Position numbers and translations under genes: made by a program. From assembly GCA_964398215.1 (NCBI GenBank), contig CAYNNP010000139.1:1-13949 (forward strand): a stretch of 13,949 bases of DNA, read 5' to 3'. Origin of the DNA: an uncultured Pirellulaceae bacterium (lineage in GTDB: Bacteria; Planctomycetota; Planctomycetia; Pirellulales; Pirellulaceae). Below the pieces are notes generated by a model that saw only the letters and a list, made by a program, of their open reading frames with translations, did not search any database and had not been told where the DNA came from. This document shows, piece by piece, positions 1 through 13,949 of this stretch; position 1 is the stretch's first letter; the number at the start of each line of letters is the position of its first letter.

Positions 1-123
1 CAGGGCAAAGCAGTTTTCCAAACTGCTTGAAGTAGCTCGGCTCTCCGAGCCGAGAAATCGCCAGGTCTCGGCTGGGACAGCCGAGCTACTATGTTGCCTA
101 CCTTGAAAAGCTGATTTGCCCTG
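1..123. repeat. Cluster of three short stem-loops nested inside a 9-bp terminal inverted repeat (cagggcaaa at 1-9, tttgccctg at 115-123)
   Basis: Hairpin 1 is gcagttt-tcc-aaactgc (10-26). Hairpin 2 is ctcggctc-tcc-gagccgag (36-54). Hairpin 3 is ctcggctg-gga-cagccgag (67-85). Hairpins 2 and 3 are near-identical copies about 31 bp apart. An outer pair tagctcgg (33-40) / ccgagcta (81-88) encloses both. Everything was read directly from the sequence. Confidence 0.55.
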
Positions 124-893
124 TGACTGGCGGTTGCCCGATATTCTTCGTGTACTCGGCGCATGACGATAAAGTCGCTAGTGTTCATGTGCTTATATTC
201 CATTTTTGCCAAGCGGTGCGGAGCTTCGTCGTGGCCGAGCCCAAAATTGACTCGCTAGTTGATCCAACCTTTTTGTTTCGATTCCAGATTCCGTTGGCCA
301 AAGTAGCCTTGGGCTGGTCGCAAAAGGGCTTGCAGTTACCCGACAAATGCCAACTGCCATCGTTTGGCGAAATGGCGAATCGGCCGGTCTTTGCCGATGT
401 GCGAATGGGCTGGAACAAAACCGGTATCGGTATTCAAGTTTTAGTCAAAGGCAAGCGTCAGATGCCGTGGTGCCGTGACACGCGGCTGGACGAAAGTGAC
501 GGCATTCACGTATGGATTGATACACGCTGCAGTCCTGGTATTCATCGTGCCACGCAATTTTGCCATCGATTTTTGTGGATGCCCGTTGGCGGCGGGCCGC
601 GACGTGATCGGCCGATCGCGACACTCGTCCCCATCAACCGAGCTCGCCAAAACCCAAAGTCGATTCCCAGTGATGGGTTGAAGATTGCGGCAGCTCCCAA
701 ACACGATGGATATGCACTGTCAGGCTTCATTTCGGCGAGCGCATTGACTGGCTTTTCACCCGAAGACCAGCCCCGAATTGGGTTGTATTACGCTGTCGTG
801 GACCGGGAACTTGGTTGGCAAACGTTCTCGCTGGGTCCTGACTATCCAGTTGTAGAAGACCCCAGTTTGTGGGGTGAGGCTGTGCTCAGTTAA
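123..893 (+). CDS. Hypothetical protein (256 codons from a GTG start; the first in-frame ATG is at 372)
   Basis: It is the longest ORF in the region. Only short antisense ORFs compete on the other strand. The amino-acid composition looks protein-like (for example GLYYAVVDRELGWQTFSLGPDYPVVEDPSLW). There is no recognisable family motif and no SD. The GTG start overlaps the outer stem of the hairpin cluster, so the true start may lie downstream. An in-frame stop at 33-35 excludes extension beyond the window. Confidence 0.45.
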   Translation: MTGGCPIFFVYSAHDDKVASVHVLIFHFCQAVRSFVVAEPKIDSLVDPTFLFRFQIPLAKVALGWSQKGLQLPDKCQLPSFGEMANRPVFADVRMGWNKTGIGIQVLVKGKRQMPWCRDTRLDESDGIHVWIDTRCSPGIHRATQFCHRFLWMPVGGGPRRDRPIATLVPINRARQNPKSIPSDGLKIAAAPKHDGYALSGFISASALTGFSPEDQPRIGLYYAVVDRELGWQTFSLGPDYPVVEDPSLWGEAVLS

Positions 894-1091
894 GCCTCTT
901 TGAACGCCAGCCGAGAGCCAAGTCACGATTTCATCTGAAAAATGCGGGTTCTGAGCACATCTGCCAGTTACCTTTCGCGTCTTGATTTATAGAATTTGGG
1001 TAGTCTTGAAAGCCCAAATGATCGATACCATCGGTACAGTCTGTTCCCTAAGTAGCTGCGGCCAAGAAAAAATTAGCTTGCCAGAACCTAT

Positions 1092-2972
1092 ATGACCACC
1101 ACAACAAAGACGTCAAAGGACGTCCAATCTGTTTCCGGAATCACCGTTCGACTCGCTGGCGACTCCGGCGACGGGATGCAACTACTGGGAACACAGCTGA
1201 CAAACACCAGTGCACTTGCTGGCAATGATGTCGCAACATTCCCTGACTTCCCGGCCGAAATCCGTGCTCCCAAAGGAACTCGTGCTGGCGTCTCTGGCTT
1301 TCAAGTTCAATTTGCTAGCCAAGAAATCTTTACGCCCGGCGATACGCTGGACGCGCTCGTGGTGATGAACCCAGCTGCGATGGTCACCAATATCAGTGAC
1401 CTGCGGAAGGGCGGGATTTTGATCGCGAACGAAGACGGCTTCAATGACAAGGAATTCAAGTTGGCGAAGGTCGACGCGAATCCTTTAGAGGCCGACGTGA
1501 TCAACCAAGAGTACCGGGTCATCAAAGTCCAGATGACCAAGTTGACTCGTGAAGCTGTCAAAGAACACGGGCTTAGCACGAAAGTCGCTGACCGCTGCAA
1601 GAACTTTTTTGCAATGGGACTTGTCTACTGGTTGTTTGGCCGATCCCTGGACCCAACGCTCCGGTTCATCGAGAACAAATTTGGCAAGAAGCCAGAGCTT
1701 GCTGCGGCCAACATATCGGCGCTTCGCGCAGGCTGGGCGTATGGTGAAACCACCGAGGCTTTCGGTGAAAGTTATCAAGTTGACGCTGCTACGCTTGAGC
1801 CAGGCAACTACCGCAACATCATGGGCAACCAAGCATTGGCGTGGGGTTTGATCACTGCTTCAAAGCTTAGCGGCAAGGATCTGTTTTACGGCACTTACCC
1901 GATCACGCCTGCCAGCGACATTCTGCACGAACTGACGAAGTACAAGAATTTTTCTGTACGAACATTTCAAGCGGAAGACGAGATCGCTGCCGTGTGTTCT
2001 GCCATCGGCGCAGCGTTTGGCGGTGCAATGGGCGTGACCGCAAGTAGCGGTCCTGGCATCGCACTCAAAGGCGAAGCGATGGGACTGGGGATGATTTTAG
2101 AATTGCCCATGATCATCGTGAACGTACAGCGCGGGGGTCCTAGCACTGGGCTGCCAACCAAGACCGAGCAGAGTGATTTGCTGCAAAGTATGTTTGGCCG
2201 GAACGGTGAATCGCCACTTCCGATCTTGGCGCCGCGATCACCCGGCGATTGCTTTGACATGGCGATCGAAGCTTGGCGATTGGCGACCGAATGCATGGTT
2301 CCTGTGATCTTGCTGTCCGATGGATACATTGCAAACGGTAGCGAACCGTGGAAGATCCCAGAGATGAGTTCGTTGCCAGCGATTCCGGTTTCGCACCCAG
2401 AGGGAGCGGACCCGTCGGAGCCGTTCATGCCTTACGCGCGTGACGAAAACCTGGCCAGACCGTGGGCAATTCCCGGCACCGAAGGCTTAATGCACCGCGT
2501 TGGTGGGCTAGAGAAAGAAGACTTGACTGGTAATGTCAGCTACGACCCTGACAACCACCAAAAGATGACGGATCTGCGGCAAGCGAAAATTGCAAAGATC
2601 GCAGAACGTATTCCCGAGCAGGATGTGTTTGGCGAAACATCGGGAGACGTCTTGGTCGTTTCATGGGGCGGAACTTATGGTGCATGTCATACCGCTGTCC
2701 AGCGTTGCCAAGAAAACGGCAAGAGTGTCAGCCATGCTCATATCCGCTATATGAATCCGCTGCCGTCCAATATTGGCGAACTGCTGAAATCGTTCCGCAC
2801 AGTTTTGGTTCCCGAACTGAACATGGGACAACTTCGCTTGCTACTACGATCAGAGTTCTTGGTCGACTGCGTTGGCATCAACAAAGTCAAAGGCAAGCCG
2901 TTCACAGTTGGCGAACTGGTCGACGGCATCGAAGAACATCTTAGTGTTATCACTACCAAGGCGGCGGGATAA
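1092..2972 (+). CDS. korA: 2-oxoacid (2-oxoglutarate/pyruvate-type):ferredoxin oxidoreductase, alpha subunit with fused N-terminal gamma domain (626 aa)
   Basis: The N-terminal gamma-domain signature ITVRLAGDSGDGMQLLG is present, followed by an alpha domain (GTYPITPASDILHEL, GPGIALKGE). Its length is typical of the two-subunit KorA type. It sits immediately upstream of a TPP-binding beta subunit. The substrate (2-oxoglutarate versus another 2-oxoacid) cannot be fixed from sequence alone. Confidence 0.9.
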   Translation: MTTTTKTSKDVQSVSGITVRLAGDSGDGMQLLGTQLTNTSALAGNDVATFPDFPAEIRAPKGTRAGVSGFQVQFASQEIFTPGDTLDALVVMNPAAMVTNISDLRKGGILIANEDGFNDKEFKLAKVDANPLEADVINQEYRVIKVQMTKLTREAVKEHGLSTKVADRCKNFFAMGLVYWLFGRSLDPTLRFIENKFGKKPELAAANISALRAGWAYGETTEAFGESYQVDAATLEPGNYRNIMGNQALAWGLITASKLSGKDLFYGTYPITPASDILHELTKYKNFSVRTFQAEDEIAAVCSAIGAAFGGAMGVTASSGPGIALKGEAMGLGMILELPMIIVNVQRGGPSTGLPTKTEQSDLLQSMFGRNGESPLPILAPRSPGDCFDMAIEAWRLATECMVPVILLSDGYIANGSEPWKIPEMSSLPAIPVSHPEGADPSEPFMPYARDENLARPWAIPGTEGLMHRVGGLEKEDLTGNVSYDPDNHQKMTDLRQAKIAKIAERIPEQDVFGETSGDVLVVSWGGTYGACHTAVQRCQENGKSVSHAHIRYMNPLPSNIGELLKSFRTVLVPELNMGQLRLLLRSEFLVDCVGINKVKGKPFTVGELVDGIEEHLSVITTKAAG

Positions 2973-3036
2973 ACCGCACGCATCATTTAGTATCCCTTTT
3001 CAAACGAACAACTGACTCTCAATTCATTCCGACGCC

Positions 3037-4044
3037 ATGTCTCTTCCTGTATTAAAAGCATCTGATTTTGCATCCGACCAAGACATCCGATGGTGTCCTG
3101 GATGCGGCGACTATTCGATTTTGGCACAGATGAAAAAGGTCTTGCCTGACCTGGGTGTGCCTCGCGAAAAGATCGTATTTATCAGCGGCATTGGATGCAG
3201 CAGTCGTTTTCCGTACTACATGAATACGTACGGCATGCACAGCATTCACGGACGCGCGCCGACTTTTGCAACTGGATTGAAATCAACGCGCCCCGATTTG
3301 ATGGTCTGGGTAATCACAGGTGACGGCGACGCTCTTTCGATCGGCGGGAATCACTTCATTCATGCTTTGCGTCGTAACGTCGACGTGAATATCGTCTTGT
3401 TCAATAACCGCATCTATGGATTGACCAAGGGACAATACAGCCCGACCAGCGAGCATGGAAAAGTAACCAAGAGTACGCCGATGGGATCGATTGACCATCC
3501 GCTCAGTCCGCTCTCGGTTGCTTTGGCCGCAGAAGCAACATTTGTTGCCCGTAGTATGGATGCACACGTCAAGCACTTAGGCGAAACGCTCAAGCGAGCG
3601 AGCGCACACAAAGGCACTTCGCTGGTCGAGGTTTACCAAAACTGCAATGTGTTCAATGACGGTGCGATGGCTTACGCCCAAGAAAAGAAGCAGCGTCCAG
3701 AAAACGTTGTAGAACTCCAGCATGGCAAACCGCTCGTGTTTGCTGGCGGCGAGAAGGGTGTTCGGTTGGTCGGCACACGACTGGAAGTGGTCAATACTGC
3801 TGATGTACCTGCGGACGATCTGCTGATTCATGACGAAAAGGATCCGAACCCTTCGATCCAAATGATGCTAGCCCGAATGCGCTATCCAGAAATGCCAGAA
3901 CCGATCGGGGTTCTGCGAGCCGTTGAAGGCGTGCCAACTTACGACGAACAAATCAATTCGCAGGTCACATCTGCGGTCGCCAATCAAGGCGAAGGTGATT
4001 TGAGCAAGTTGTTCAACGCCGGCGAGACCTGGACCGTTTCCTAA
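3037..4044 (+). CDS. korB: 2-oxoacid:ferredoxin oxidoreductase, beta subunit (TPP-binding, 335 aa)
   Basis: The N-terminal cysteine motif RWCPGCGDYSI and GIGCSSRFPYY are present. The TPP-binding signature is GDGDALSIGGNHFIHALRRNVDVNIVLFNNRIYGLTKGQ. It lies 64 bp downstream of korA on the same strand. Confidence 0.9.
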   Translation: MSLPVLKASDFASDQDIRWCPGCGDYSILAQMKKVLPDLGVPREKIVFISGIGCSSRFPYYMNTYGMHSIHGRAPTFATGLKSTRPDLMVWVITGDGDALSIGGNHFIHALRRNVDVNIVLFNNRIYGLTKGQYSPTSEHGKVTKSTPMGSIDHPLSPLSVALAAEATFVARSMDAHVKHLGETLKRASAHKGTSLVEVYQNCNVFNDGAMAYAQEKKQRPENVVELQHGKPLVFAGGEKGVRLVGTRLEVVNTADVPADDLLIHDEKDPNPSIQMMLARMRYPEMPEPIGVLRAVEGVPTYDEQINSQVTSAVANQGEGDLSKLFNAGETWTVS

Positions 4045-4111
4045 TCAGGCCGTAGCCGGAGTCGCCAGACTTCGGGCTTCAACCAACCAGCCTGAATTCT
4101 GGCGAATCCAG

Positions 4112-7100
4112 CTACTGCTTGTTGGGGCCGCCTGAGTTGTCGAAGGTTGTTTCGATCTCGCGGTAGTTTGCCAGCATGTCGTCTAGCTGTCCTCGCAGTT
4201 TGTCGAGGTCGCGGCCGTTGTCCAGCGATTCGGCCAGGATCGGACGGAGCCATTCTTGCATCAAGTGAAATTGGCCTTTGATCAAGTCTGCCAAGACTCG
4301 AGGCACCTTGTGCTGCACGAACACCTTTTGGTCTGGCGGTGTCAGAGCCTGTTGCTCGCTGATTTTTTGCAGTTGTTGGCCGGTCTTTCCTAGCGTCTGT
4401 GACAACTGTTCGCCTGAGCTAACCAGACTTTGCCGGAGCGAGTCTAGCCGAGCATCCATTCGTTCTTCGGCGCCGTCGTCGCGGGTTGCGATCGCTTTGC
4501 TGATCACGCTGCGAATCGATTCCAATCCGTCTCGCATCGCTCCCAGTTGACGCATCAGCTGAGCGGCTTGGTCTTCGTTGTCCATGCCAGCCATGCGAAC
4601 GCTTTCGACATACGCATACTTGATCGAATCCCAACGCTCTTGTTCTTCTGGCGTCAGGATGCCCATCAGTTCCTTGAACTTCAAAACGTTGGCTTCATTA
4701 TCGGTTGTCAACGTTTGAGCGTCTTGTTCGTAGCTGCCGATGATCAGCGTTTGAAGCTCGGAATCGTTCATGACACCAGCGACTTTCTCTGCCATCCGAT
4801 TCATATTCCGGTACGAACCCTGCAGCTTGAACGGCGGTTCGGTTCGGTACGCGTCGGCCTGCGCGGCACTGCGAATGTAAGCCCTGTTGACCCGAAGAAC
4901 GACATCGCGAACGCGAAGCAGTTTTCGCATCACTTCGTACATCTCGCGAACTTCGTCCATCGAAATATTGCTTTCCAGCTCAAGGCCTTCCATTGAATCT
5001 CGCTGAGCAGCCATGACGATCGCGCGAGCGTCTTCTGGCGGAGCGTTGGACAATGGTGCGAGCGTACGGTTGCTGGTCAAGCAATTTTCCAGGTAACTCA
5101 TCTCAAATGCGTCTGCCGAATCGCCAATGATCTCGCCTAAGTTGTAGACATCGGCACGGTTCGACAGCATATCGGGAATCTGAAAACGGTCGCCGCTTTC
5201 AGTGTACGGGTTGCCCGCCATGACGACGGCGACGCGGCGGCCACGCAAATCATAGGTCCGCGTTTTGCCGTTGCGGACGCCTTCGATTTTTCGCGTGGCA
5301 TCACACAGAGAGATAAACTTTTGCAGCAATTCTGGATTCGTGTGCTGAATATCATCCAAGTACAGCATCACATTGTCGCCCATTTCCAAGGCCAGATTCA
5401 ATCGCTCGATTTCTTCGCGAGCCGCCGCATTGGGCGCTTCGGACGGATCCAGCGAAGTCACCGCGTGTCCGATCGCAGGACCATTGATCTTCATGAATAC
5501 CACGCCCAAACGATTGGCGATGTACTCCATCAGAGTCGTTTTACCGTACCCTGGCGGCGAGATTAGCAGCAGCAAACCCATTCGGTCAGTACGCTTGTCT
5601 TCGCCCGCTGACCCCATTTGTTTGGCAAGGTTGTCACCAATCATTGGCAAGTAAACTTCGTCCAGCAAACGGTTCCGCACAAAGCTAGTCAGCACCCGCG
5701 GTTTGAATTCGTCCAACCGCATGTCTTCGCGTGACGTTTCGACGACATGCGCCTTTGTCTCTTGAAGCAAGCGATATCGGGGCACGACGTCTTCGCTGAA
5801 ATGCTGAACTCGGCGGATCAAATCGTGATAGTGCAATGCATACTTGCCGCTTTGGATCACGCCGTGGCTCCCAGCCATGCCTGTTAATTCGGCAGCGACA
5901 GCGGCATCGGCAACGCGGAACGAAGTGGTCGCTCCGGCTTGGATGATCATCGCTAATTCGTCGCGGTAGGCTGCAATCGGGTCGACATCACTGCCGGCTT
6001 CGTGCGTTTGGATGAAAGCATCGGCCCAGTTCCGAGCCAAAATGAAGCCACGTACAGGATCTGTGTCAGCGCTCTTGATCGCTCCGGTCAACAACTTTGA
6101 TCGTTCGGCATCGGGGATCGAATCAATAAATTTGCCAAACAACTTTTTCGCGCGACCACTGATAACTGTCTTTTTGGGTGTCGCAATCAGCTGATCGAAC
6201 AGGTACTCCGACAGCCGTGCTGTATTCACGTCGCGCCCAAAGACGTTTTGCAGATCGTCGATATGTTGTTCCACCAATTCCGTCAGTCGGCTGCGGAATT
6301 CGACAGCGGGCTTGGCATGCGGATAGGCTTTGGCAAGTTTCGCAAACCCACCGATCCAATCCGTCATCGCTTTGCGTTCTTTGGCTGGCAAAAGACGATT
6401 GAACCACAACAATGCGGCCGCTCGCAATGTTGGTGTGTATTTCAAGAGCCCAATGGATTCGTCGATTTCGACCAGGCCCTGCAAAATCAGAGCCGCGTCA
6501 TGATCGTGGACGCCTTTCGCGTACCCTTCCTCGAACCGGCCACCGATTTTTGTTTGTACATAGCTCGCGTCGATCGCGGTTGGGTCCAGCTTTTCGCCAT
6601 CGGAGCGGGCGGCGTTGAAAAGATCGACGGCCAAGTACTCCGCGCGATAAACTTCGGCGTTCTCGCTAACGAGTTCCTGATTCCAGAGCTCTTTGGCATC
6701 CACCAAGGCGGCTTCATGGATCGCTTCAAAGAACTGGGTGCCTGTAAGGTGCAAGCACATTTCACCGCCACGAACGACGGTCGTCAAATCCAACGGTTGT
6801 GTATTGACGGCGAATCGTTGTGTACCAAGACGGATGATATCGCCGCCATCCTCGTACAAGTCCTGGCGGTCTTTTAGTTGCCGTGTCGCGTCCTCACGAA
6901 TCGTCTTCATCCGACTCTGAAGATCTTCAACGCGCACTGCGTCGTCCAGGTCTTGCAACTGATCGATGATGTCGCGAACCTTTTCGACCATCAAGTCGCC
7001 AGCGAAATACGCGGCAATCTCGTCGGCCGACTCCATGTTCCCGACGCGTGTATTGATGCCCTTTAGGATTCGATTGGCCGCTGAAGCCAATGACTCGGCG

Positions 7101-9361
7101 CGGCGATTACGTTTCTCCACCAAGGCGACTTTACGAGACTCAAAGGCCGCGTAGACCTCTTCGCGCCGGGTGGCTAGCTGGATCACGAACTCGTCGAACT
7201 CAGCGAATCGGCCCTCCAGTTCTTCTAGTTGAACCATGACCTTGGTCAGGTATTCATCGCATCGTTCCGGAGAATCGCAAACGTCCAGGTACCCCGACGT
7301 GGTTTGTTCCAGCAGTTTTAGCTGGGAGGCAAACTCTGCTTGGCCCTCGACACTGACCAATTCGGTCACGCGTGCTTTCAATCCACTTCGGACACGATTC
7401 AATGAAGCGAAGACGTCACCGATCGCGTCGATGATTTCGGTTCGCTTGGTTGCGTCGTCAATCCGCAAGTTACTGACGGTCTCAGTCAGTAACTCCAGTT
7501 GCGATCCAGCGGTGTCAATTTCTTCTTCCAAGACCTTTGCCTCGGCAACGGTCGCGACCGTATCGATTTTGCCGCTCGCTTCAGCCACGCGTTCGGAATA
7601 CGGATCCAGGGCTCCTGGAGTCAGCAAGAAATCAACGCATCGCCGACTCAATCGTTCACTGCGCTCGGCGGTTTCTTTCTCCAAAGATTCCACGATCGCA
7701 AGATCGACGTAACGCAGTTCCTTTAAACCCAGCGCATGGCCACGCTGCTCTCGCAGTTGGGCCAACGAGCCAACGAAATCATCGATCGACTCGAATCGGC
7801 TGCGTTCAATGCTCTTGATCAGTTCGGCGATCGCGGTTTTGACTTCACCAGTTCGTTTTTTGGTGTCACGACGAACGCGGGTCACTTTTTCGAATTCTTC
7901 GACAGCAGCGTTGGCTGCTTCGCGAATTTTCGTCAGCGGAATCGCAAGGTTCTCGGTTTCGTCTTTGTTGATCCAGAAAAAGCTGTCCAACAGATCCGAC
8001 GCCTTTTTGGACAAGTCCACGTACAGCCCGTCGTAACTATCGTCCTTGTCGATCAACTGCAGCAGTTCGCTACACTCGGCCATTCCCGCAACGATTTCTT
8101 TATTGCCGATTTTGAACAGCAGTGAATCGGTTTGATTGTCGGGATTGAAGTCCGCGCCGGTGAACGGCGTTTGCCAAATCTGAATCGCGTGATGTTTCTG
8201 CGCATCCTCTTGCGACTTGAAACACACCATTTCGCCCGCTTCAAAAAACGTTTGCCCGTGGCAGACCAGCGGTGTTTCGACCGTCTGCTTGATCACGTTG
8301 TAACGAAGCTGTGCGTACGTACCGGACTCGGGCGTATAGAAAAGGTACAAGTAGTCTTCGCCGTTGGGTGACGCGACGGTACGCTGGAAACGCATGTCGG
8401 TCAAACCGTGATCGAACCGCTTGAACTCGCCCGTCTGCAAGTAATATCCGCCTGGGAAAATCAAGCCTTGGTCGCCGGGCAACATCACGCACGATTGTTC
8501 GATCTCGTCCAGTCTCATCGCCTGCTGGATCTTGCCGTTGTAAACCAAGTATCGTGTTTTTTCTTCTTGATACGGTTTCATCTTCAGCAAAACCAGATTG
8601 CCGATGATCGCATAATGGATCTCGGCATCGTCCAGCGTTTGATCAGGATGGTCGACCGGTTCGGCGTAAATACCTTCGCCGGAATCCGTGTTGTTTTCGA
8701 CCTTCACGGTCAAATCGCCGCCAACCGTTTCGACAAACACGATGTCATCGATCGAAATGTGAGGGTGCGAACCGTAGCGATGTTGATCGCGAGTCGTTCG
8801 TGTCCAGCGAAACTCGTGCTGAGCCGGTTCTTTGACTTCGTGATCGCTGCGATTGTCGATGTATTCGATTTCAGTCGGTGTCACGCGCCATTTAAACGTC
8901 TTGATGTCGTTGGCGGTCTTTCCGACTTGGAAAACCATGTGCAGCATTGGTCCGCTGCGATAGAACCGACTGAACGTCGTGCCTTTATAAAAGCGATACA
9001 GTTCGTCAAAGTCGCTGCTGAATTTGTCGTCACCGATCAATTCAAGCGTGTCGGTGTGGAATTGGTTGTCGGCGAATCGATAAGCCGAAAACACATCAGC
9101 GACGTTGATGTCGGTTTTCAAGCCGAATTGAACGTTGTACCCGAACAGAAATCGGTCGCCAATGGAAACCAAGTCGCGCGGGATGCAATTGTGCTCAGTC
9201 GAAACGCGTTCGGTGGAAAGCAGTTTGGTTTCGATATTGCCGAAAACATCGGCGCGAGCCAAGTTTAACTTGGCAAGCCGTTCACGCAAATCATTCGACG
9301 CATCGCGAAGACGATTGCGCAGTACTTCGTAGGTGCCGGCAGCAAGTTGTGATTCGGACAT
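4112..9361 (-). CDS. Giant (1749 aa) soluble protein with a single AAA+ ATPase core (MoxR/RuvB-like motifs) between large N- and C-terminal non-ATPase regions
   Basis: This is a continuous 5.25-kb ORF. Walker A is LLLLISPPGYGKTTL (K at about residue 1274, nt about 5534-5560). Walker B is NVMLYLDDIQHTNPELLQKFISLCDA (D1336/D1337, nt 5351-5356). Sensor-1 is RRVAVVMAGNP. The arginine-finger region is SGDRFQIPDMLSNRADVY. Residues about 60-440 look beta-rich. Residues about 450-1250 are long and helical. The C-terminal 250 residues look Q/L-rich and coiled-coil-like. No hydrophobic transmembrane segment is seen. No protease-like or nuclease-like motif is recognised. Confidence 0.85.
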   Translation of the reverse strand: MSESQLAAGTYEVLRNRLRDASNDLRERLAKLNLARADVFGNIETKLLSTERVSTEHNCIPRDLVSIGDRFLFGYNVQFGLKTDINVADVFSAYRFADNQFHTDTLELIGDDKFSSDFDELYRFYKGTTFSRFYRSGPMLHMVFQVGKTANDIKTFKWRVTPTEIEYIDNRSDHEVKEPAQHEFRWTRTTRDQHRYGSHPHISIDDIVFVETVGGDLTVKVENNTDSGEGIYAEPVDHPDQTLDDAEIHYAIIGNLVLLKMKPYQEEKTRYLVYNGKIQQAMRLDEIEQSCVMLPGDQGLIFPGGYYLQTGEFKRFDHGLTDMRFQRTVASPNGEDYLYLFYTPESGTYAQLRYNVIKQTVETPLVCHGQTFFEAGEMVCFKSQEDAQKHHAIQIWQTPFTGADFNPDNQTDSLLFKIGNKEIVAGMAECSELLQLIDKDDSYDGLYVDLSKKASDLLDSFFWINKDETENLAIPLTKIREAANAAVEEFEKVTRVRRDTKKRTGEVKTAIAELIKSIERSRFESIDDFVGSLAQLREQRGHALGLKELRYVDLAIVESLEKETAERSERLSRRCVDFLLTPGALDPYSERVAEASGKIDTVATVAEAKVLEEEIDTAGSQLELLTETVSNLRIDDATKRTEIIDAIGDVFASLNRVRSGLKARVTELVSVEGQAEFASQLKLLEQTTSGYLDVCDSPERCDEYLTKVMVQLEELEGRFAEFDEFVIQLATRREEVYAAFESRKVALVEKRNRRAESLASAANRILKGINTRVGNMESADEIAAYFAGDLMVEKVRDIIDQLQDLDDAVRVEDLQSRMKTIREDATRQLKDRQDLYEDGGDIIRLGTQRFAVNTQPLDLTTVVRGGEMCLHLTGTQFFEAIHEAALVDAKELWNQELVSENAEVYRAEYLAVDLFNAARSDGEKLDPTAIDASYVQTKIGGRFEEGYAKGVHDHDAALILQGLVEIDESIGLLKYTPTLRAAALLWFNRLLPAKERKAMTDWIGGFAKLAKAYPHAKPAVEFRSRLTELVEQHIDDLQNVFGRDVNTARLSEYLFDQLIATPKKTVISGRAKKLFGKFIDSIPDAERSKLLTGAIKSADTDPVRGFILARNWADAFIQTHEAGSDVDPIAAYRDELAMIIQAGATTSFRVADAAVAAELTGMAGSHGVIQSGKYALHYHDLIRRVQHFSEDVVPRYRLLQETKAHVVETSREDMRLDEFKPRVLTSFVRNRLLDEVYLPMIGDNLAKQMGSAGEDKRTDRMGLLLLISPPGYGKTTLMEYIANRLGVVFMKINGPAIGHAVTSLDPSEAPNAAAREEIERLNLALEMGDNVMLYLDDIQHTNPELLQKFISLCDATRKIEGVRNGKTRTYDLRGRRVAVVMAGNPYTESGDRFQIPDMLSNRADVYNLGEIIGDSADAFEMSYLENCLTSNRTLAPLSNAPPEDARAIVMAAQRDSMEGLELESNISMDEVREMYEVMRKLLRVRDVVLRVNRAYIRSAAQADAYRTEPPFKLQGSYRNMNRMAEKVAGVMNDSELQTLIIGSYEQDAQTLTTDNEANVLKFKELMGILTPEEQERWDSIKYAYVESVRMAGMDNEDQAAQLMRQLGAMRDGLESIRSVISKAIATRDDGAEERMDARLDSLRQSLVSSGEQLSQTLGKTGQQLQKISEQQALTPPDQKVFVQHKVPRVLADLIKGQFHLMQEWLRPILAESLDNGRDLDKLRGQLDDMLANYREIETTFDNSGGPNKQ

Positions 9362-9586
9362 GATGTTTTATTGTCGTCGCTTGTCTGGCGTGCGAACGCT
9401 AGGTGTTTGGTTACATGAATGGGCAAGGCATCGGTCGCGTCTTGTGCAAATCGACCGGTCGTGTGCCGGTCAACGATGACAGGCGCGGTGCACTTGCCAT
9501 GCGTTTGCCAATCAAAACAGCATCCCAGGTCTCTCTCCCGAGGCAAGCCCGAGTAGAGAGGATTTTGGATGCGTGCGTGCGAGCCG

Positions 9587-11692
9587 TTAGGCCTTGCCGG
9601 CTTTTGGCGATCCATTGCTGGCGACCTTGTTGCTGGTCAGCAGACGGCCAGCCTTTTGATCCGCAACCTTGGCACTGCCAGCTGCACCTAGCAAGCTAGT
9701 TAGCTGGGTGCGAACGTCGTCGGTCGTGGCCAGACCCATCATTTTGGCAATCAAAGCGGCGATCGAAAGATCTTTCACGCCGTCAGTGTCCAAATTGAAG
9801 TGGTCGAGCATGCCGCTAAGCTGATCGCTAAAGTACTCCGCATTCCCATCGAAGAACGTGTCCTTGATGTCGGTTGCCACACGGCTGTTGTAGACGAATC
9901 GGTCGATCGCCTTGCCGCCTTTGACAGCCGAAGTAATCTGGTCGAAGAATTCGCCATCGCCACCGACAATGTCGATACGCGCTGCTTTGAGTGCTTCGCC
10001 AACCACGCCAGCTTGACTCTCCGCGATTCCACGCTGAGCATCGATTGCAGCGATCTCGACATCCTTTTCTTTGGTAAGCGTCAACTTGAACTCTTCGTGC
10101 TCTTTGCCCACGCTGTCCAGCAGCTTCATCGCTTCGGCCTTTTGCGTGATGCCATCGGCTTCGGCGCGGTACTTCTCCAAGTCCACGTTGGCTTCGGCCA
10201 AACCTTGCTTTTCGACCGCAGTCGCTTTCGCCTCGATACCCTTTGCTTCGGCAACAGCCTTTTTCTCAAAGACCACAGCTTCCGCACTGCCCTCTTTCTC
10301 TAGACTGACAGCTTTCGCTTCCTGGACCGTCGCTTCGGCTAGGCCAGCAGCAGCTTTGGTAGCGGCTTCGCCTTCGGCCAACATCTTCTTTGCAGAAGCG
10401 TCTTTTTCGGCCGCGTCGCGTTTCGCCTCGGCTTCGATACGAACCTTTTCCGCCAACATCTCGCTAGCATCACGTTCGGCCTGAGCCAATTTGGTTTGGC
10501 GAATCAGCTCTTCTTCGGCCTTCATTTCTGCAGCCGTAACCTGAACCTTCTTCAGACGCTCGGCCTGCGCGACTTCTTCGGTATCCTTGATCCGCTCCTT
10601 TTCTTCGACCACGGCACGTTCAACAGCGACCCGTTCGCGAATCACTTCTTGGATATTCCGCTTTTCGGTTTCGATTGCCTTTTCTTTTTCGACTTCTGCA
10701 ACGCCAACCAGTCGCATTCGTTCGGTCGCTTCCAATTCGCGATCACGATTCACACGCTCCAGTTCAACCGCGTCTGTCTTTTCTTTGCTACGCTGAGCAA
10801 CCAAGACCTGTCGCATTTTGTTTTCTTCCGCGACGCCCAGTTCTTCTTCGGTAGCGATTCGAGCTCGCTCCGATTCCAGACGTTGCTCTTCTTCGACCTT
10901 TTTAGCGGAAGCCTGCTCGCGAGCCGAAACCTCAGCAATTTCACGCTTCTGCTTCTCGACCGCTTCAACCCGCTGACGTTCCAGAGAAAGAATCGTTTCT
11001 TCCGCCTCGACATCCTGCTTCTTCAGCGTCTTTTCTTTGTCACGTGTGAATTGGTTTTCCTTGACCTTTTCGTTCGACGTCAATTCCGTGATCTTCTTGA
11101 TGCCTTCTGCGTCCAAGATATTGGTTGGGCTAAGCAATTCGATCGGAGTTTGTTCCAAGTAATCGATCGCCGCGTCATCAAGACAGTAACCGTTTAGATC
11201 GGTACCGATGACTTTCAGAATTTCGTCTTTGAACTTATCGCGTTGGTCATACAGTTCTACAAAGTCAAATTGCTTGCCCACCGTCTTGAGTGCCTCAGAG
11301 AACTTGGCGTCGAACAATTCACGCAACGTCTCCAGTTCGCTACAACGCCGTGCACCGATCGACTGGGCGACCTCTTTCATTTCTTCTTCCTTGTTATTCA
11401 CACGGATGAAGAATGCCACTTTGATGTCAGCTCGAATATTGTCTTTACAAATCAAACCCTCACTACCCTGTCGGCTGATTTCAAAGCTCTTGAGTGTCAG
11501 GTCCATGTGTTCGACGCGGTTGATCACTGGATAGACCAGCATGCCGCCAGCGGTTTGGACAGCCATTCCGCCCATTCCGGTTTTGACGATTGCCTTGTCA
11601 GGCCCAACCACGATGTAACACCGCCGCACGACGGTAACGATCACGACCACCAATACGATGAAGGCGACGATAACACCAATTGCTAATTCCAT
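9587..11692 (-). CDS. SPFH/Band-7 flotillin-family protein (YqiK/FloT-like, 701 aa) with N-terminal membrane anchor and extended Ala/Glu/Lys coiled coil
   Basis: The N-terminal hydrophobic anchor is MELAIGVIVAFIVLVVVIVTVV. The SPFH core is IVVGPDKAIVKTG...EISRQGSEGLICKDNIRADIKVAFFIRV. A roughly 300-aa EA/K-rich coiled coil follows (RLESERARIATEEELGVAEENK...AEAKRDAAEKDASAKK). A flotillin-type C-terminal region is present. The ATG at 11692 lies 2 nt after the TGA of the upstream gene. A GGAGA SD sits 7 nt upstream. Confidence 0.9.
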   Translation of the reverse strand: MELAIGVIVAFIVLVVVIVTVVRRCYIVVGPDKAIVKTGMGGMAVQTAGGMLVYPVINRVEHMDLTLKSFEISRQGSEGLICKDNIRADIKVAFFIRVNNKEEEMKEVAQSIGARRCSELETLRELFDAKFSEALKTVGKQFDFVELYDQRDKFKDEILKVIGTDLNGYCLDDAAIDYLEQTPIELLSPTNILDAEGIKKITELTSNEKVKENQFTRDKEKTLKKQDVEAEETILSLERQRVEAVEKQKREIAEVSAREQASAKKVEEEQRLESERARIATEEELGVAEENKMRQVLVAQRSKEKTDAVELERVNRDRELEATERMRLVGVAEVEKEKAIETEKRNIQEVIRERVAVERAVVEEKERIKDTEEVAQAERLKKVQVTAAEMKAEEELIRQTKLAQAERDASEMLAEKVRIEAEAKRDAAEKDASAKKMLAEGEAATKAAAGLAEATVQEAKAVSLEKEGSAEAVVFEKKAVAEAKGIEAKATAVEKQGLAEANVDLEKYRAEADGITQKAEAMKLLDSVGKEHEEFKLTLTKEKDVEIAAIDAQRGIAESQAGVVGEALKAARIDIVGGDGEFFDQITSAVKGGKAIDRFVYNSRVATDIKDTFFDGNAEYFSDQLSGMLDHFNLDTDGVKDLSIAALIAKMMGLATTDDVRTQLTSLLGAAGSAKVADQKAGRLLTSNKVASNGSPKAGKA

Positions 11693-11694
11693 GT

Positions 11695-12453
11695 TCAGTT
11701 CTCCGATTTTATTTCTGTGACGGTGTAGATTTTTTTGTCAGCGTCGTAGTCAACGATTCTTGCTTCGGTTCCACGGGACAGGGAGGAACTCTTGGTGCGT
11801 ACATTCAGAAGCAACGGTGATGCTTCTGTGCGAAATTTAGCTTGCCCGGAAGTGGGGGTCGCTTCGAGGGACGAAATTTCGCAAGTACAACCAACAATTC
11901 TTCGATTGTCGTATCCTGGTTTTGGTGTAAACGCACTGACCATGGGGTTGGTAACCAGTTTTGTGATTACAACCGCCATAACCGCGTTACGTATCGAAAG
12001 CAGGATAGTTGGAAGTAGCTCGGCCGAGTACCTTTGCTTGTCAAATGAATGCCAAAGTACGTATGCCAATGCCCAAAAGGAGGCTGTGAATACGCCGCCC
12101 CAAATTGCGATCGGCACGCGGCCAAAGTTGGTCCATTTGACGGTCAAGGCGCCCAAGCTGGCCAGCAAACCCTGCCCGCTAAGTTCTAGTCCAACATCCC
12201 CATCGGATACAGCAAACTCGCCAGCATCCAAATTCGGTGTGTGAACAGAAGGATCGATATCCAAATCTAGGTCGACGTCAACATCCAGATCCAAGTCCAG
12301 ATCGACGTCTGCATCCATTCCCAAGTCAACGAATCCAAACAAAGCCACCACGGCATAGACGCACATCAAACTGAACAGCACTGACGCTGGCCAGAGGGGA
12401 CCGACGAATAGTTCAGTTTCGACTTGATTTAGAAATTCTTCCACGACTCTCAA
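11695..12453 (-). CDS. NfeD/YqiJ-like (DUF1449-type) inner-membrane protein with C-terminal OB-fold; start uncertain (TTG at 12453 per ORF track, GTG at 12444 more plausible)
   Basis: The protein has two or three hydrophobic helices (LWPASVLFSLMCVYAVVALFGFV; GLLASLGALTV...IAIWGGVFTASFWALAYVLW; LLPTILLSIRNAVMAVVITKLV). The C-terminal beta-rich tail (RIVGCTCEISSLEA...ARIVDYDADKKIYTVTEIK) is typical of the NfeD short-form OB domain. It sits directly upstream of a flotillin, which is the classic yqiJ-yqiK/nfeD-floT arrangement. AAGGAG lies immediately 5' of the TTG with only a 1-nt spacer, and 10 nt before the GTG at 12444. Confidence 0.75.
   Translation of the reverse strand: MRVVEEFLNQVETELFVGPLWPASVLFSLMCVYAVVALFGFVDLGMDADVDLDLDLDVDVDLDLDIDPSVHTPNLDAGEFAVSDGDVGLELSGQGLLASLGALTVKWTNFGRVPIAIWGGVFTASFWALAYVLWHSFDKQRYSAELLPTILLSIRNAVMAVVITKLVTNPMVSAFTPKPGYDNRRIVGCTCEISSLEATPTSGQAKFRTEASPLLLNVRTKSSSLSRGTEARIVDYDADKKIYTVTEIKSEN
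11700..11704 (-). promoter_or_regulatory. Shine-Dalgarno (GGAGA) for the flotillin gene, embedded in the 3' end of the upstream NfeD-like gene
   Basis: The minus strand reads AAAATCGGAGAACTGAACATG, with a 7-nt spacer to the ATG. Together with the 2-nt stop-start gap this indicates translational coupling. Confidence 0.5.
12253..12327 (-). repeat. Imperfect hexanucleotide repeat encoding an acidic (D-L/V) dipeptide run: DLGMDADVDLDLDLDVDVDLDLDID
   Basis: The plus strand reads atcgatatccaaatctaggtcgacgtcaacatccagatccaagtccagatcgacgtctgcatccat. This is inside the NfeD/YqiJ-like CDS, in the loop after the first membrane helix. Confidence 0.7.
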
Positions 12454-12460
12454 GCTCCTT
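12454..12460 (-). promoter_or_regulatory. Canonical AAGGAG Shine-Dalgarno preceding the NfeD/YqiJ-like gene
   Basis: The minus strand reads CTCAAGGAGCTTGAGAGTCGTG. This is one of the few strong SDs in the window. Confidence 0.5.
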
Positions 12461-12822
12461 GAGACAATTGGCCCGTACAGTAGACCTTTAGCTTACGTAT
12501 ATGGCATCAACGCCAAGCCGCTGGGGCGCTCAAGTCGATTGATTTTGGCCAAATTCCGGGTTCGTCGCCTTAGACTTGCAACCTAGCGAATGCCATTCTG
12601 AGCCACCCGACCATCGCCGCCGTCGTCCTGGGTCTCTGCGATCCAAAATCTCACCAGCCGAATCTGGCGACCAAGGCTCCGATCTCACACCTCGCGATTC
12701 GAAAGACCAGGTCATGCCTTGTGAAGCAGGAGTGCGTCTGCGCGAACTACGCTTCGCATCTAATTTGGCGGGCTTGGTGTTGCTTGGATGAACATTCGGC
12801 CACTCGGTTGTGGTCCACAGTG

Positions 12823-12846
12823 GAAATAAAAAGAAGTTTTATTTTT
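12823..12846. other. 30-bp pure A/T island forming an all-A:T hairpin (aaataaaa-agaag-ttttattt) in an otherwise GC-rich intergenic leader
   Basis: The sequence ggaaataaaaagaagttttatttttctta was read directly. It lies immediately downstream (minus sense) of the mini-ORF stop and about 370 bp upstream of the NfeD-like start. It is too AU-rich to be a classical intrinsic terminator. It could be an UP-element, a nucleoid-protein site or a weak terminator. Confidence 0.35.
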
Positions 12847-12874
12847 CTTAGTTCAGCGACTCAGCCAGCGAGCC

Positions 12875-12982
12875 TTAGCCACCAGCGCTGGCTACCAGCG
12901 CGCCAGAGATGAAGCCAACCCATACGACCACGTATACCAGAACCGGACTATCAATCGGTTTGTCTTTTTGTGCAGTTGCCAT
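12875..12982 (-). CDS. Candidate 35-aa single-helix membrane mini-protein (MATAQKDKPIDSPVLVYVVVWVGFISGALVASAGG), below the ORF-track size cutoff
   Basis: The ATG at 12982 is preceded by GGAGA (12988-12992) with a 5-nt spacer: cattGGAGAacagcATG. The stop TAA is at 12875-12877. The peptide has a polar N-terminus followed by a 20-residue hydrophobic stretch. The A/T hairpin island follows it. It lies upstream of, and on the same strand as, the NfeD-flotillin-ATPase module. Confidence 0.35.
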   Translation of the reverse strand: MATAQKDKPIDSPVLVYVVVWVGFISGALVASAGG

Positions 12983-13042
12983 GCTGTTCTCCAATGGATC
13001 AATGCGTGTTGCGCTAGTCCGTTAGCGAAGAAACAAAAGCCT

Positions 13043-13123
13043 GGGTAAGTGACGCGAATCCATCAGCCTAATCTGGCACTGACAGAGCAAGTAAATCTCT
13101 GCGTCGACTTGGCCCACTTACCC
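13043..13123. repeat. 9-bp inverted repeat gggtaagtg (13043-13051) / cacttaccc (13115-13123) separated by 63 bp, in the leader of the downstream secreted-protein gene
   Basis: Read directly from the sequence. It lies about 160 bp upstream of the ATG at 13281. Confidence 0.4.
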
Positions 13124-13280
13124 CATAAACGGATTCAATTTCAAAACCGGACAACTAATTTCCCGGGATGATTACTGCCCATTTTTCGCCGTAGAAATTC
13201 GCGCATCAACTTGTAGCTTGTGTCATCTACCAGGAAATACTGATTCCAAGTTCTGACCCCATTCAAGTCGAGAGATAACC

Positions 13281-13949
13281 ATGCGAATTCCAAAAGTAGT
13301 TGTTTTAGCCATCGCCTTGCCGCTTCTGATTCAAGCAACAAATGCACGCGGCGACGGATCCGCTCTCAAGTTGCACGTCCACCAAAAAGGCCGTTTCGAA
13401 GCGATGATGCCTTCTTCGGCGGTCGATTCAGTGGTCAACGGCAAAGAACTCGTTGACATGAAATTCATATCAGAAGCCTTGGCCGATAATGTTTCTTATC
13501 GCGTTCGCGTGCAAGTCATTTCACCTATCGACCTAGGTGACAAACTCACAAAACAAATGTCGCAGAACTACTTGGCTCAAGCTCGCAAGGCTCACACTCG
13601 GGCTTCTGGCAACCGATTGGAGAAGGACATCGAATTCAAACAGCATGGATTTGATTGCGCCGAGTTTTCCTATGCTCTCAAAAACGGAATATCGATACGT
13701 CATCGAATCATGTTCGATGGCCTGCGGCTTTACTTGGCATCTGTGGCTGGCTCTCCGCAATCGATCAAGGCAGCAGCGGCAGAGTCGTTTCTGGATTCAG
13801 TTGGCCCCAAGGGTGCTAACGCAAAGAAAGCGGCATCGCCCAGAAAAGTGTCCGTCGCACCCCAGCCCGTTCCTTCAGACATGAAGCGATCGTCCAGAAA
13901 ACCGGTCGCCGGAACCATGAAGCGATCGCCTAGAAAAGCGGCCGCCACA
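13281..13949 (+). CDS. Secreted/exported protein of unknown function, 3'-truncated by the window edge (at least 223 codons, no stop reached)
   Basis: The ATG at 13281 has a weak GAGAGA SD 6 nt upstream. A classical signal peptide is present: MRIPKVVVLAIALPLLIQATNA|RG. The frame stays open to the last base of the window. It is absent from the ORF track because no stop is reached. The C-terminal part becomes Lys/Arg/Pro/Ala-rich (KKAASPRKVSVAPQPVPSDMKRSSRKPVAGTMKRSPRKAAA). Confidence 0.6.
   Translation, partial: MRIPKVVVLAIALPLLIQATNARGDGSALKLHVHQKGRFEAMMPSSAVDSVVNGKELVDMKFISEALADNVSYRVRVQVISPIDLGDKLTKQMSQNYLAQARKAHTRASGNRLEKDIEFKQHGFDCAEFSYALKNGISIRHRIMFDGLRLYLASVAGSPQSIKAAAAESFLDSVGPKGANAKKAASPRKVSVAPQPVPSDMKRSSRKPVAGTMKRSPRKAAAT
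13881..13949 (+). repeat. Tandem 33-36-nt repeat (atgaagcgatcg[t/c]c[c/t]agaaaa...), two copies visible before the window ends, encoding MKRSSRKPVAGT / MKRSPRKAAAT
   Basis: Read directly from the sequence. The mirror-image ORF 13730..13948 on the minus strand is a by-product of the same repeat. Confidence 0.6.

Follow-up and report, generated by a model that had tools for sequence, protein, structure and literature searches.

A giant DUF3686 AAA+ protein encoded beside flotillin and YqiJ/YuaF-like genes in a planctomycete: architecture, conserved gene context and a possible role at the membrane

The window considered here, a stretch of 13,949 nucleotides (nt) from an uncultured Pirellulaceae bacterium (GenBank assembly GCA_964398215.1, contig CAYNNP010000139.1, positions 1 to 13,949), harbors three consecutive genes on the reverse strand, which encode a YqiJ/YuaF-like membrane protein, a flotillin and a giant ATPase (Table 1). 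The flotillin gene starts 2 nt past the stop codon of the first gene and is followed by a gap of 225 nt before the giant gene. The latter is a real gene, since more than 6000 homologues of its product were scored and 724 representatives at 50% identity emerged when residues 1-470 served as query of an exhaustive HMMER search. Moreover, its start codon is kept among orthologues, and a public metagenome assembly holds a protein identical to its product. The giant protein is an ordinary orthologue of the widespread DUF3686 family, whose operon has been computationally described before, and combines a beta-propeller with long helical arms and a single AAA+ motor in one polypeptide, the greater part of which is non-ATPase sequence.

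Table 1. Features of the window and of the encoded giant protein (aa, amino acids; pLDDT, predicted local distance difference test; all positions are those of the window or of the giant protein)
Feature	Residues of giant protein	Nucleotides	Strand	Basis or remark
YqiJ/YuaF (NfeD-type)-like inner-membrane protein, first of triad		11695..12453	(-)	252 aa, C-terminal soluble domain
Flotillin (SPFH/Band-7 plus long Glu/Ala-rich coiled coil), second of triad		9587..11692	(-)	701 aa
Giant ATPase gene, third of triad		4112..9361	(-)	1749 aa, soluble; DUF3686 family; NCBI name 'DNA repair ATPase'
Beta-propeller, about six blades, DUF3686 core	46-397	8171..9226	(-)	AlphaFold2: 24 strands, pLDDT mostly 80-90
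Long helical/coiled-coil arm	414-835	6857..8122	(-)	AlphaFold2: helices of 25-58 residues, pLDDT 75-95
DUF7902 within helical arm	584-666	7364-7612	(-)	Pfam
Middle module: beta unit (hairpins) plus helical domain	842-880 and 906-1142	5936..6838	(-)	AlphaFold2
Motif EGYxKG(V/I)HDxDA	945-956	6494-6529	(-)	Family conservation; within confidently modelled helical domain 906-1142
AAA+ alpha/beta subdomain	1258-1427	5081..5590	(-)	Pfam, 69-member conservation, AlphaFold2
Walker A SPPGYGKTT	GYGKTT 1271-1276, K1274	5534-5560	(-)	
Walker B LYLDDIQH	LYLDD 1333-1337, D1336, D1337	5342-5365	(-)	
Pre-sensor-1 beta-hairpin, predicted	1358-1371		(-)	AlphaFold2; between Walker B helix and sensor-1 strand
Sensor-1 GNPYT	MAGNPY 1381-1386, N1384	5201-5215	(-)	
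PDMLSNRAD	R1402	5150-5176	(-)	Putative arginine finger
Helical lid region	1428-1545	4727..5080	(-)	Conservation; AlphaFold2
LQGSYRNM	R1518	4802-4822	(-)	Likely sensor 2; helix start in AlphaFold2 model
Variable Leu/Gln-rich helical tail	1601-1749	4115..4561	(-)	
2-oxoacid:acceptor (ferredoxin) oxidoreductase alpha and beta		1092-2972, 3037-4044	(+)	TIGR03710 E 1e-202; PorB/KorB-type beta
Open frame running off window end		13281-13949	(+)	Starts MRIPKVVVLAIALPLLIQATNA, signal-peptide-like; no Pfam match

Residues 24-462 of the giant protein match the complete Pfam profile DUF3686 (PF12458, positions 1-448) with an E-value of 1e-190 and 634.3 bits against a gathering cut-off of 25, and the DUF7902 match within the arm reaches 95 bits (E 2e-27). 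Full-length members of the family comprise 1550-2036 residues. A first-pass annotation, made from the sequence alone, had seen no protease, nuclease, VWA or transmembrane feature in the protein, which agrees with both the Pfam scan, where none of the three former domains was matched, and the hydrophobicity profile, where the Kyte-Doolittle maximum over 19 residues amounts to 1.12 and no transmembrane segment emerges. The same annotation had named membership in a well-characterized family with a known set of partners as an outcome that would speak against its view of the protein; in this respect the protein does belong to a named Pfam family and has fixed flotillin and YqiJ-like partners, although the family itself is uncharacterized.

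The flotillin possesses one N-terminal anchor, a transmembrane segment at residues 1-32 followed by two arginines (RR), and is 31% identical to Escherichia coli YqiK over 440 residues (E 2e-45). A second relative, the SPFH protein of plasmid pQBR103 (41% identity, E 2e-124), in turn matches Pfam Band_7 at 9e-11, whereas the 701-residue protein itself yields no Pfam match, and none to Band_7 even at E <= 10. Automatic annotation thus under-calls this flotillin subfamily. The orthologues of Streptomyces and Proteus likewise escape Pfam. A C-terminal flotillin segment that appeared to have no counterpart in YqiK after MAFFT alignment was left unused, because the alignment is unreliable in the repetitive Glu/Ala region. 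The 252-residue protein encoded upstream displays hydrophobic segments at residues 17-48, 115-133 and 145-168. Its match to Pfam YqiJ_N is weak and below the cut-off (E 0.053), and direct comparison with E. coli YqiJ by BLASTP was not significant; it does, however, share 29% identity (E 4e-14) with a protein of Hymenobacter that carries a DUF1449 annotation, and the position and size of the gene fit the YqiJ/YuaF-type gene of the described operon.

The architecture of the giant protein was derived from two AlphaFold2 models, covering residues 1-1200 (mean pLDDT 82) and 1100-1749 (mean pLDDT 71), which were built from one 63-sequence alignment of planctomycete, Deinococcus, Xanthomonadaceae and Longimicrobium homologues; the second model is unreliable at beta1 and the P-loop (1244-1272) as well as at residues 1390-1408. 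An N-terminal helix (residues 10-40) precedes the propeller, which contains a disordered loop at residues 198-243. Using Foldseek, this beta domain was matched to six- and seven-bladed propellers with a probability of 1.0 and E-values from 1e-5 to 1e-2, led by CyRPA (E 1e-5) and followed by the WD40 domain of Elp1, thiocyanate dehydrogenase, neuraminidase and prolyl oligopeptidase. Hence, the first-pass proposal of a beta-rich, propeller-like domain at about residues 60-440 is borne out. The subsequent stretch from 450 to 1250 had been described as helical, which is correct for residues 414-835, where a crude heptad scan was positive at 430-499, 606-638 and 699-811, and for residues 906-1142, but not for residues 842-880 and 1148-1177, which form beta hairpins and a small beta unit, respectively. 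Downstream of the AAA+ core, helices continue to the C-terminus. The Q/L-rich character ascribed to the tail is reflected by 10.8% leucine and 9.2% glutamine within residues 1500-1749, and the Leu/Gln-rich tail is specific to the planctomycete members.

Conservation was assessed across 69 full-length members, whose identity to the window protein ranges from 30% to 64%. It peaks at residues 1201-1450 and 1501-1550, is moderate in the propeller and collapses past residue 1600, where gaps occur in 39-57% of the members. The middle module, which has no Pfam match and lies in a region (residues 836-1250) devoid of PDB profile matches, nonetheless contains ten residues that are invariant in all members, namely G846, F850, T875, E900, R906, G950, H952, D955, R980 and E1135, while D953 is kept in 66 of the 69. 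The motif EGYxKG(V/I)HDxDA looks like a candidate functional site, possibly one for metal or phosphate binding. An identity as HD phosphohydrolase was considered for its HDxD core, but neither Pfam nor PDB searches lend support and further HD signature residues are missing.

The AAA+ module is the only ATPase domain of the protein, as the first-pass annotation had put forward: the AAA-type matches of both full-length and isolated-domain Pfam scans are confined to residues 1264-1387, and no second alpha/beta P-loop domain is present in the AlphaFold2 models. Its proposed core (residues 1255-1440) corresponds to nt 5042-5599, in agreement with the approximate span of 5040-5600 given earlier, and the motif positions K1274, D1336-D1337, N1384 and GDRF at 1390-1393 had been placed exactly. 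The C-terminal boundary, on the other hand, was set too early: the invariant QGSYR around R1518 looks like sensor 2, which carries the module on to about residue 1545. Five motifs make up a family signature, all of them present in the window protein and unchanged in each of the 69 members, namely SPPGYGKT (K1274), DDIQH (D1336-D1337), GNPYT (N1384), PDMLxNR (R1402) and QGSYR (Q1514-R1518); R1506 is likewise invariant. N1384 directly follows a predicted strand at 1377-1381. The earlier statement that all motifs are intact applies to Walker A and sensor-1 but not to Walker B, which is Asp-Asp in every member, an aspartate replacing the usual catalytic glutamate; this arrangement appears compatible with hydrolysis without being the canonical motif. 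Moreover, the arginine of the DRF sequence (R1392), which had been regarded as part of the catalytic set, varies among members (R in 19, K in 17, A in 14 and V in 8 of 69). The invariant arginine at the finger position of RuvB and FtsH is R1402, which is the likely arginine finger, albeit within a low-confidence part of the model (1390-1408). Similarly, R1518 is the likely sensor 2, given its place in QGSYR, a motif which we take to resemble the 'GTPR' motif of the RuvB sensor 2. The sequence DDIQHTNPELLQKFISLCDA, formerly likened to a helix-2 insert, actually comprises Walker B and the following helix. Finally, the loop between beta2 and alpha2 is conserved as GPAxGHxVxSLDP.

Placement of the module among AAA+ clades was approached from several directions. 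In the full-length scan, weak Pfam matches to AAA, RuvB_N, AAA_22 and AAA_5 all fall within residues 1255-1387. When the domain was scanned in isolation, AAA reached 30.8 bits and AAA_5, aligned over 124 of 139 profile positions, 26.7 bits, both above their cut-offs, although the AAA_5 match is marginal (22.5 bits full-length and 26.7 isolated, against a cut-off of 22). PF00004 scored 28-31 bits, yet the alignment covers no more than profile positions 1-38 or 1-68 of 131 and does not run through the domain to the second region of homology, as it would for the classical AAA clade of Cdc48, FtsH and Vps4. In line with this, sequence searches against the PDB recovered some 40-90 residues around the P-loop in Cdc48/p97, Rix7 and RuvB (E about 1e-4), and the p97/Cdc48 alignments end before or just past Walker B. 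RuvB was the best match both of the family profile against the PDB (38 residues, E 2e-3) and of the AAA+ fold in Foldseek (E 3e-4), where it was accompanied by NorQ/CbbQ and Clp. Nevertheless, the RuvB equivalog models failed widely, with 24.5 bits against 282 for NF000868 and 21.5 against 299 for TIGR00635 and about 45 residues aligned, and no VWA match, as would be expected of a MoxR partner, was detected in the genes of the window or in any annotated neighborhood. For these reasons the module is assigned to neither RuvB nor MoxR. The AlphaFold2 model, of moderate quality (pLDDT 71), shows the hairpin at 1358-1371 and an uninterrupted helix at 1312-1327 with no helix-2 insert visible; since it is weak at the central strands, no clade is claimed. 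In summary, the module is a divergent AAA+ domain with a pre-sensor-1 hairpin, which comes closest to the RuvB/Clp and MoxR groups and is assignable to none of them.

Planctomycete contexts were taken from the best 80 loci of a contig scan, all of them Planctomycetota, and 81 loci were compared; distant contexts came from a plasmid collection and from contigs encoding homologues, which provided 8 loci. Of the 81 planctomycete loci, 73 include upstream DNA, and in all 73 the next gene upstream of the giant gene encodes a flotillin orthologue; the 252-residue membrane protein is detectable upstream of the flotillin in 54. The giant proteins across these loci are 52-79% identical to that of the window. 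All 8 distant loci likewise carry the flotillin directly upstream (33-51% identity, E <= 1e-87). The triad was found in Hymenobacter (Bacteroidota), Streptomyces (Actinomycetota), Deinococcus (Deinococcota) and Longimicrobium (Gemmatimonadota), as well as in the Gammaproteobacteria Pseudomonas fluorescens (pQBR103), Vibrio, Proteus and Xanthomonas. Thus, all loci examined, which represent at least six phyla, have a flotillin gene adjoining that of the DUF3686 ATPase.

Several distant loci feature additional genes. On a Hymenobacter plasmid (L082, 4577-5693), genes for a CesT/Tir-like chaperone and PspA/IM30 are located directly upstream of the triad, and on pQBR103 (L083, 983-6107) this position is occupied by YjfI, PspA, rhomboid, DUF2491, DUF350, DUF1190 and glutathionylspermidine synthase genes. 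Through these neighbors, the triad is linked to the Psp system of envelope stress. In Vibrio campbellii (L086, 13831-15609) and Xanthomonas sacchari (L088, 13346-15199), a gene of about 235 codons comes next after the giant gene; its product is PLD-like (HKD) in Vibrio and lacks a Pfam match in Xanthomonas. A TelA (toxic anion resistance) gene lies behind it, which suggests an extended five-gene module. Members of DUF3686 also occur on plasmids and megaplasmids, with 13 plasmid records, and a plasmid-borne Deinococcus orthologue is 56-60% identical to Xanthomonadaceae and Longimicrobium proteins. As this is closer than the distance between the phyla predicts, the module has apparently been transferred horizontally, in part on plasmids.

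The operon has been described before on computational grounds by Ravi et al. 2024 (mSystems, PMC11237479; section 19, Table S3), who reported a 'beta-propeller + coiled-coil + AAA-ATPase' protein in operons with CesT/Tir-PspA, YqiJ-YuaF and Band-7-flotillin genes, noted that abbreviated operons lacking PspA are widespread, and proposed a role in membrane dynamics. The triad of the window fits such an abbreviated operon. Beyond this report, the literature search found nothing on the operon and no experimental work, and no paper found mentions DUF3686 or PF12458; Hinderhofer 2009 and a 2026 paper on Pseudomonas SPFH proteins do not mention the ATPase.

The constant adjacency to flotillin suggests that the giant ATPase most likely works on a membrane scaffold and not on DNA. 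Accordingly, the interpretation preferred here, to which we give a slightly better than even chance, considers the giant protein as the soluble, nucleotide-driven subunit of a module that comprises a YqiJ/NfeD-like protein, a YqiK-type flotillin and DUF3686, and whose scaffold it remodels. Flotillin would be held by its N-terminal transmembrane anchor with its bulk in the cytoplasm, since its short N-terminus and transmembrane helix are followed by RR, as the positive-inside rule would have it. Together with the YqiJ-like protein it may assemble an oligomeric scaffold at the inner face of the membrane. The ATPase would oligomerize via its AAA+ module, probably into a ring that projects propeller-tipped helical arms, and these arms might bind the coiled-coil lattice of flotillin or, in other species, clients such as PspA and TelA. 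Binding and hydrolysis of ATP would then remodel or take apart the lattice under membrane stress, for which Vps4 acting on ESCRT-III, NSF on SNARE bundles and FtsH in HflK/C cages could serve as analogues. Several observations weigh against this remodeling model: the window itself contains neither a PspA nor a TelA gene, the catalytic glutamate of Walker B is replaced by aspartate throughout the family, no aromatic pore-loop motif is found between beta2 and alpha2, and the invariant middle domain bearing HDxD could carry a different activity.

Some of these observations feed directly into an alternative that retains the membrane site and the flotillin partner and regards the AAA+ module as a nucleotide-dependent assembly switch or scaffold instead of a mechanical remodeler. 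Here, ATP binding would oligomerize the arms into a lattice beneath the membrane together with flotillin, and slow hydrolysis would reset it in the manner of DnaA or ORC. The Walker B motif of DnaA carries the same DDIQ as the family, in which a catalytic glutamate is absent from all 69 members, and the combination of Asp-Asp with the missing aromatic pore loop renders a threading or unfolding motor doubtful and a slow switch possible. Likewise, the very long helical arms, including spectrin-repeat-like helical parts in the model of residues 1100-1749, would suit a lattice. However, invariance extends to the sensor-1 asparagine, the putative arginine finger and sensor 2 alike, as is typical of ATP hydrolyzers, and aspartate is able to act as catalytic base. 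A switch of this kind seems unlikely, if still deserving of serious attention. A more distant possibility is that the triad constitutes a mobile conflict or anti-phage defense system, in which the propeller would sense an invader cue and the ATPase would trigger a membrane response with flotillin and, in some species, a PLD-type effector. The plasmid records, the horizontal transfer indicated by the Deinococcus protein and the HKD protein encoded after the giant gene in Vibrio would be in keeping with such a function. On the contrary, PADLOC-DB 2.0 gives only matches of P-loop length to IetA and mad8 (about 30 residues, E 7e-5 to 0.03) and none for the partners, no homologue occurs among 50,697 phage records, and the recurrent neighbors (PspA, TelA, the Yjf cluster) are membrane-stress genes and not known defense genes. 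In addition, the triad is present at every Pirellulaceae locus with an identity that slides gradually from 79% to 52%, and therefore looks like a vertically inherited housekeeping trait, which makes a defense system improbable.

The remaining explanation is the one conveyed by the databases, namely that the protein is a DNA-repair ATPase of the SMC/SbcC or RuvB kind. It draws on the Pfam text for PF12458, 'ATPase involved in DNA repair', on the NCBI name of the homologues and on the weak P-loop similarity to RuvB. The latter, however, is limited to about 40 residues at the P-loop and falls far short of the NCBIfam RuvB threshold (24.5 bits versus 282), Pfam reveals no DNA-binding, nuclease or SMC hinge domain, and some 90 neighborhoods contain no repair gene at all, their constant neighbors being membrane proteins. 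We find this explanation very hard to credit. Since no paper supports the name and the context consists of membrane genes, 'DNA repair ATPase' appears to be without basis and to rest on annotation history only.

The remodeling model can be carried further, although the following step is tentative and in our view more probably wrong than right. DUF3686 may form a separate AAA+ lineage, marked by its Asp-Asp Walker B, the lack of an aromatic pore loop and the additional invariant HDxD domain. It would form a ring with six propeller-tipped helical arms of about 1250 residues each and serve as a dedicated, ATP-driven assembly or disassembly factor for bacterial flotillin cages. If so, prokaryotes would possess a counterpart of Vps4/NSF for SPFH scaffolds, and bacterial flotillins would pass through an energy-dependent cycle. 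This touches on the role of bacterial flotillins and on the way in which their very stable oligomers are assembled and disassembled, where linkage to an ATPase suggests that one step requires energy. This offers an experimental handle, and Pseudomonas fluorescens SBW25 with pQBR103, Proteus mirabilis, Vibrio campbellii, Xanthomonas and Stenotrophomonas are among the tractable hosts. Moreover, thousands of database entries bear the name 'DNA repair ATPase', while the genomic context argues for a role at the membrane.

Apart from the triad, the window comprises the two oxidoreductase genes, which were dismissed as parts of the system because of their convergent orientation relative to the giant gene and their lack of conservation beside it elsewhere. 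About 830 nt of non-coding DNA (12454-13280) separate the triad from the open frame at the end of the window, whose product is probably secreted and which is transcribed divergently from the triad. A 116-residue open reading frame (9265..9615, reverse strand), which overlaps the flotillin gene at its end and the giant gene at its start, is most likely spurious, with no tblastn match in the 81 loci and no family match. Another open reading frame at 123-893 on the forward strand, with a GTG start and 256 codons' worth of protein, has no Pfam or NCBIfam match and is not conserved in related loci, so that its coding status is uncertain. Scans for promoters and terminators returned no more sites than shuffled sequence, and neither tRNA genes nor Rfam elements were found in the window.

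Among known systems, RuvB is the best Foldseek and profile-to-PDB match of the giant protein and resembles it in the Walker A context and in the 'G-[ST]-x-R'-like motif of the putative sensor 2. It differs in that the sequence match covers 38 residues, RuvA and RuvC are not among the neighbors, and the winged-helix DNA-binding domain has no equivalent in the window protein. The MoxR proteins NorQ and CbbQ (AAA_5) are set apart by their VWA partner, which is missing from the neighborhoods, and by their helix-2 insert, which is not visible in the AlphaFold2 model; they are 17-19% identical, and the window protein is about 1500 residues larger. With Vps4 on ESCRT-III/PspA and NSF on SNAREs, the giant protein would share an AAA+ ring with substrate-binding N-terminal domains working on a coiled-coil scaffold, which is meant as an analogy only, although PspA, a member of the ESCRT-III superfamily, is a recurrent neighbor of the triad in other phyla. 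The window protein lacks an MIT domain, the second region of homology and an aromatic pore loop, and its Walker B reads DD instead of DE.

HflK/C, a further SPFH assembly, faces the periplasm, whereas the flotillin partner in the window would face the cytoplasm. Its ATPase FtsH, in turn, bears a protease domain and a transmembrane segment that are both absent from the giant protein, which is about 1100 residues larger and has an AAA+ core that departs from the classical type of FtsH. What the two systems may have in common is the pairing of an SPFH scaffold with an AAA+ protein, which for FtsH-HflK/C is described as functional and located at the inner membrane (PMC13220708), and which is predicted for the window protein. 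From the operon described by Ravi et al. 2024 (PMC11237479), the window deviates by the absence of PspA, CesT/Tir, PLD and TelA genes and by the planctomycete Leu/Gln-rich tail. The domain order, the Pfam families and the two upstream partner genes are nevertheless the same, and nothing essential differs.

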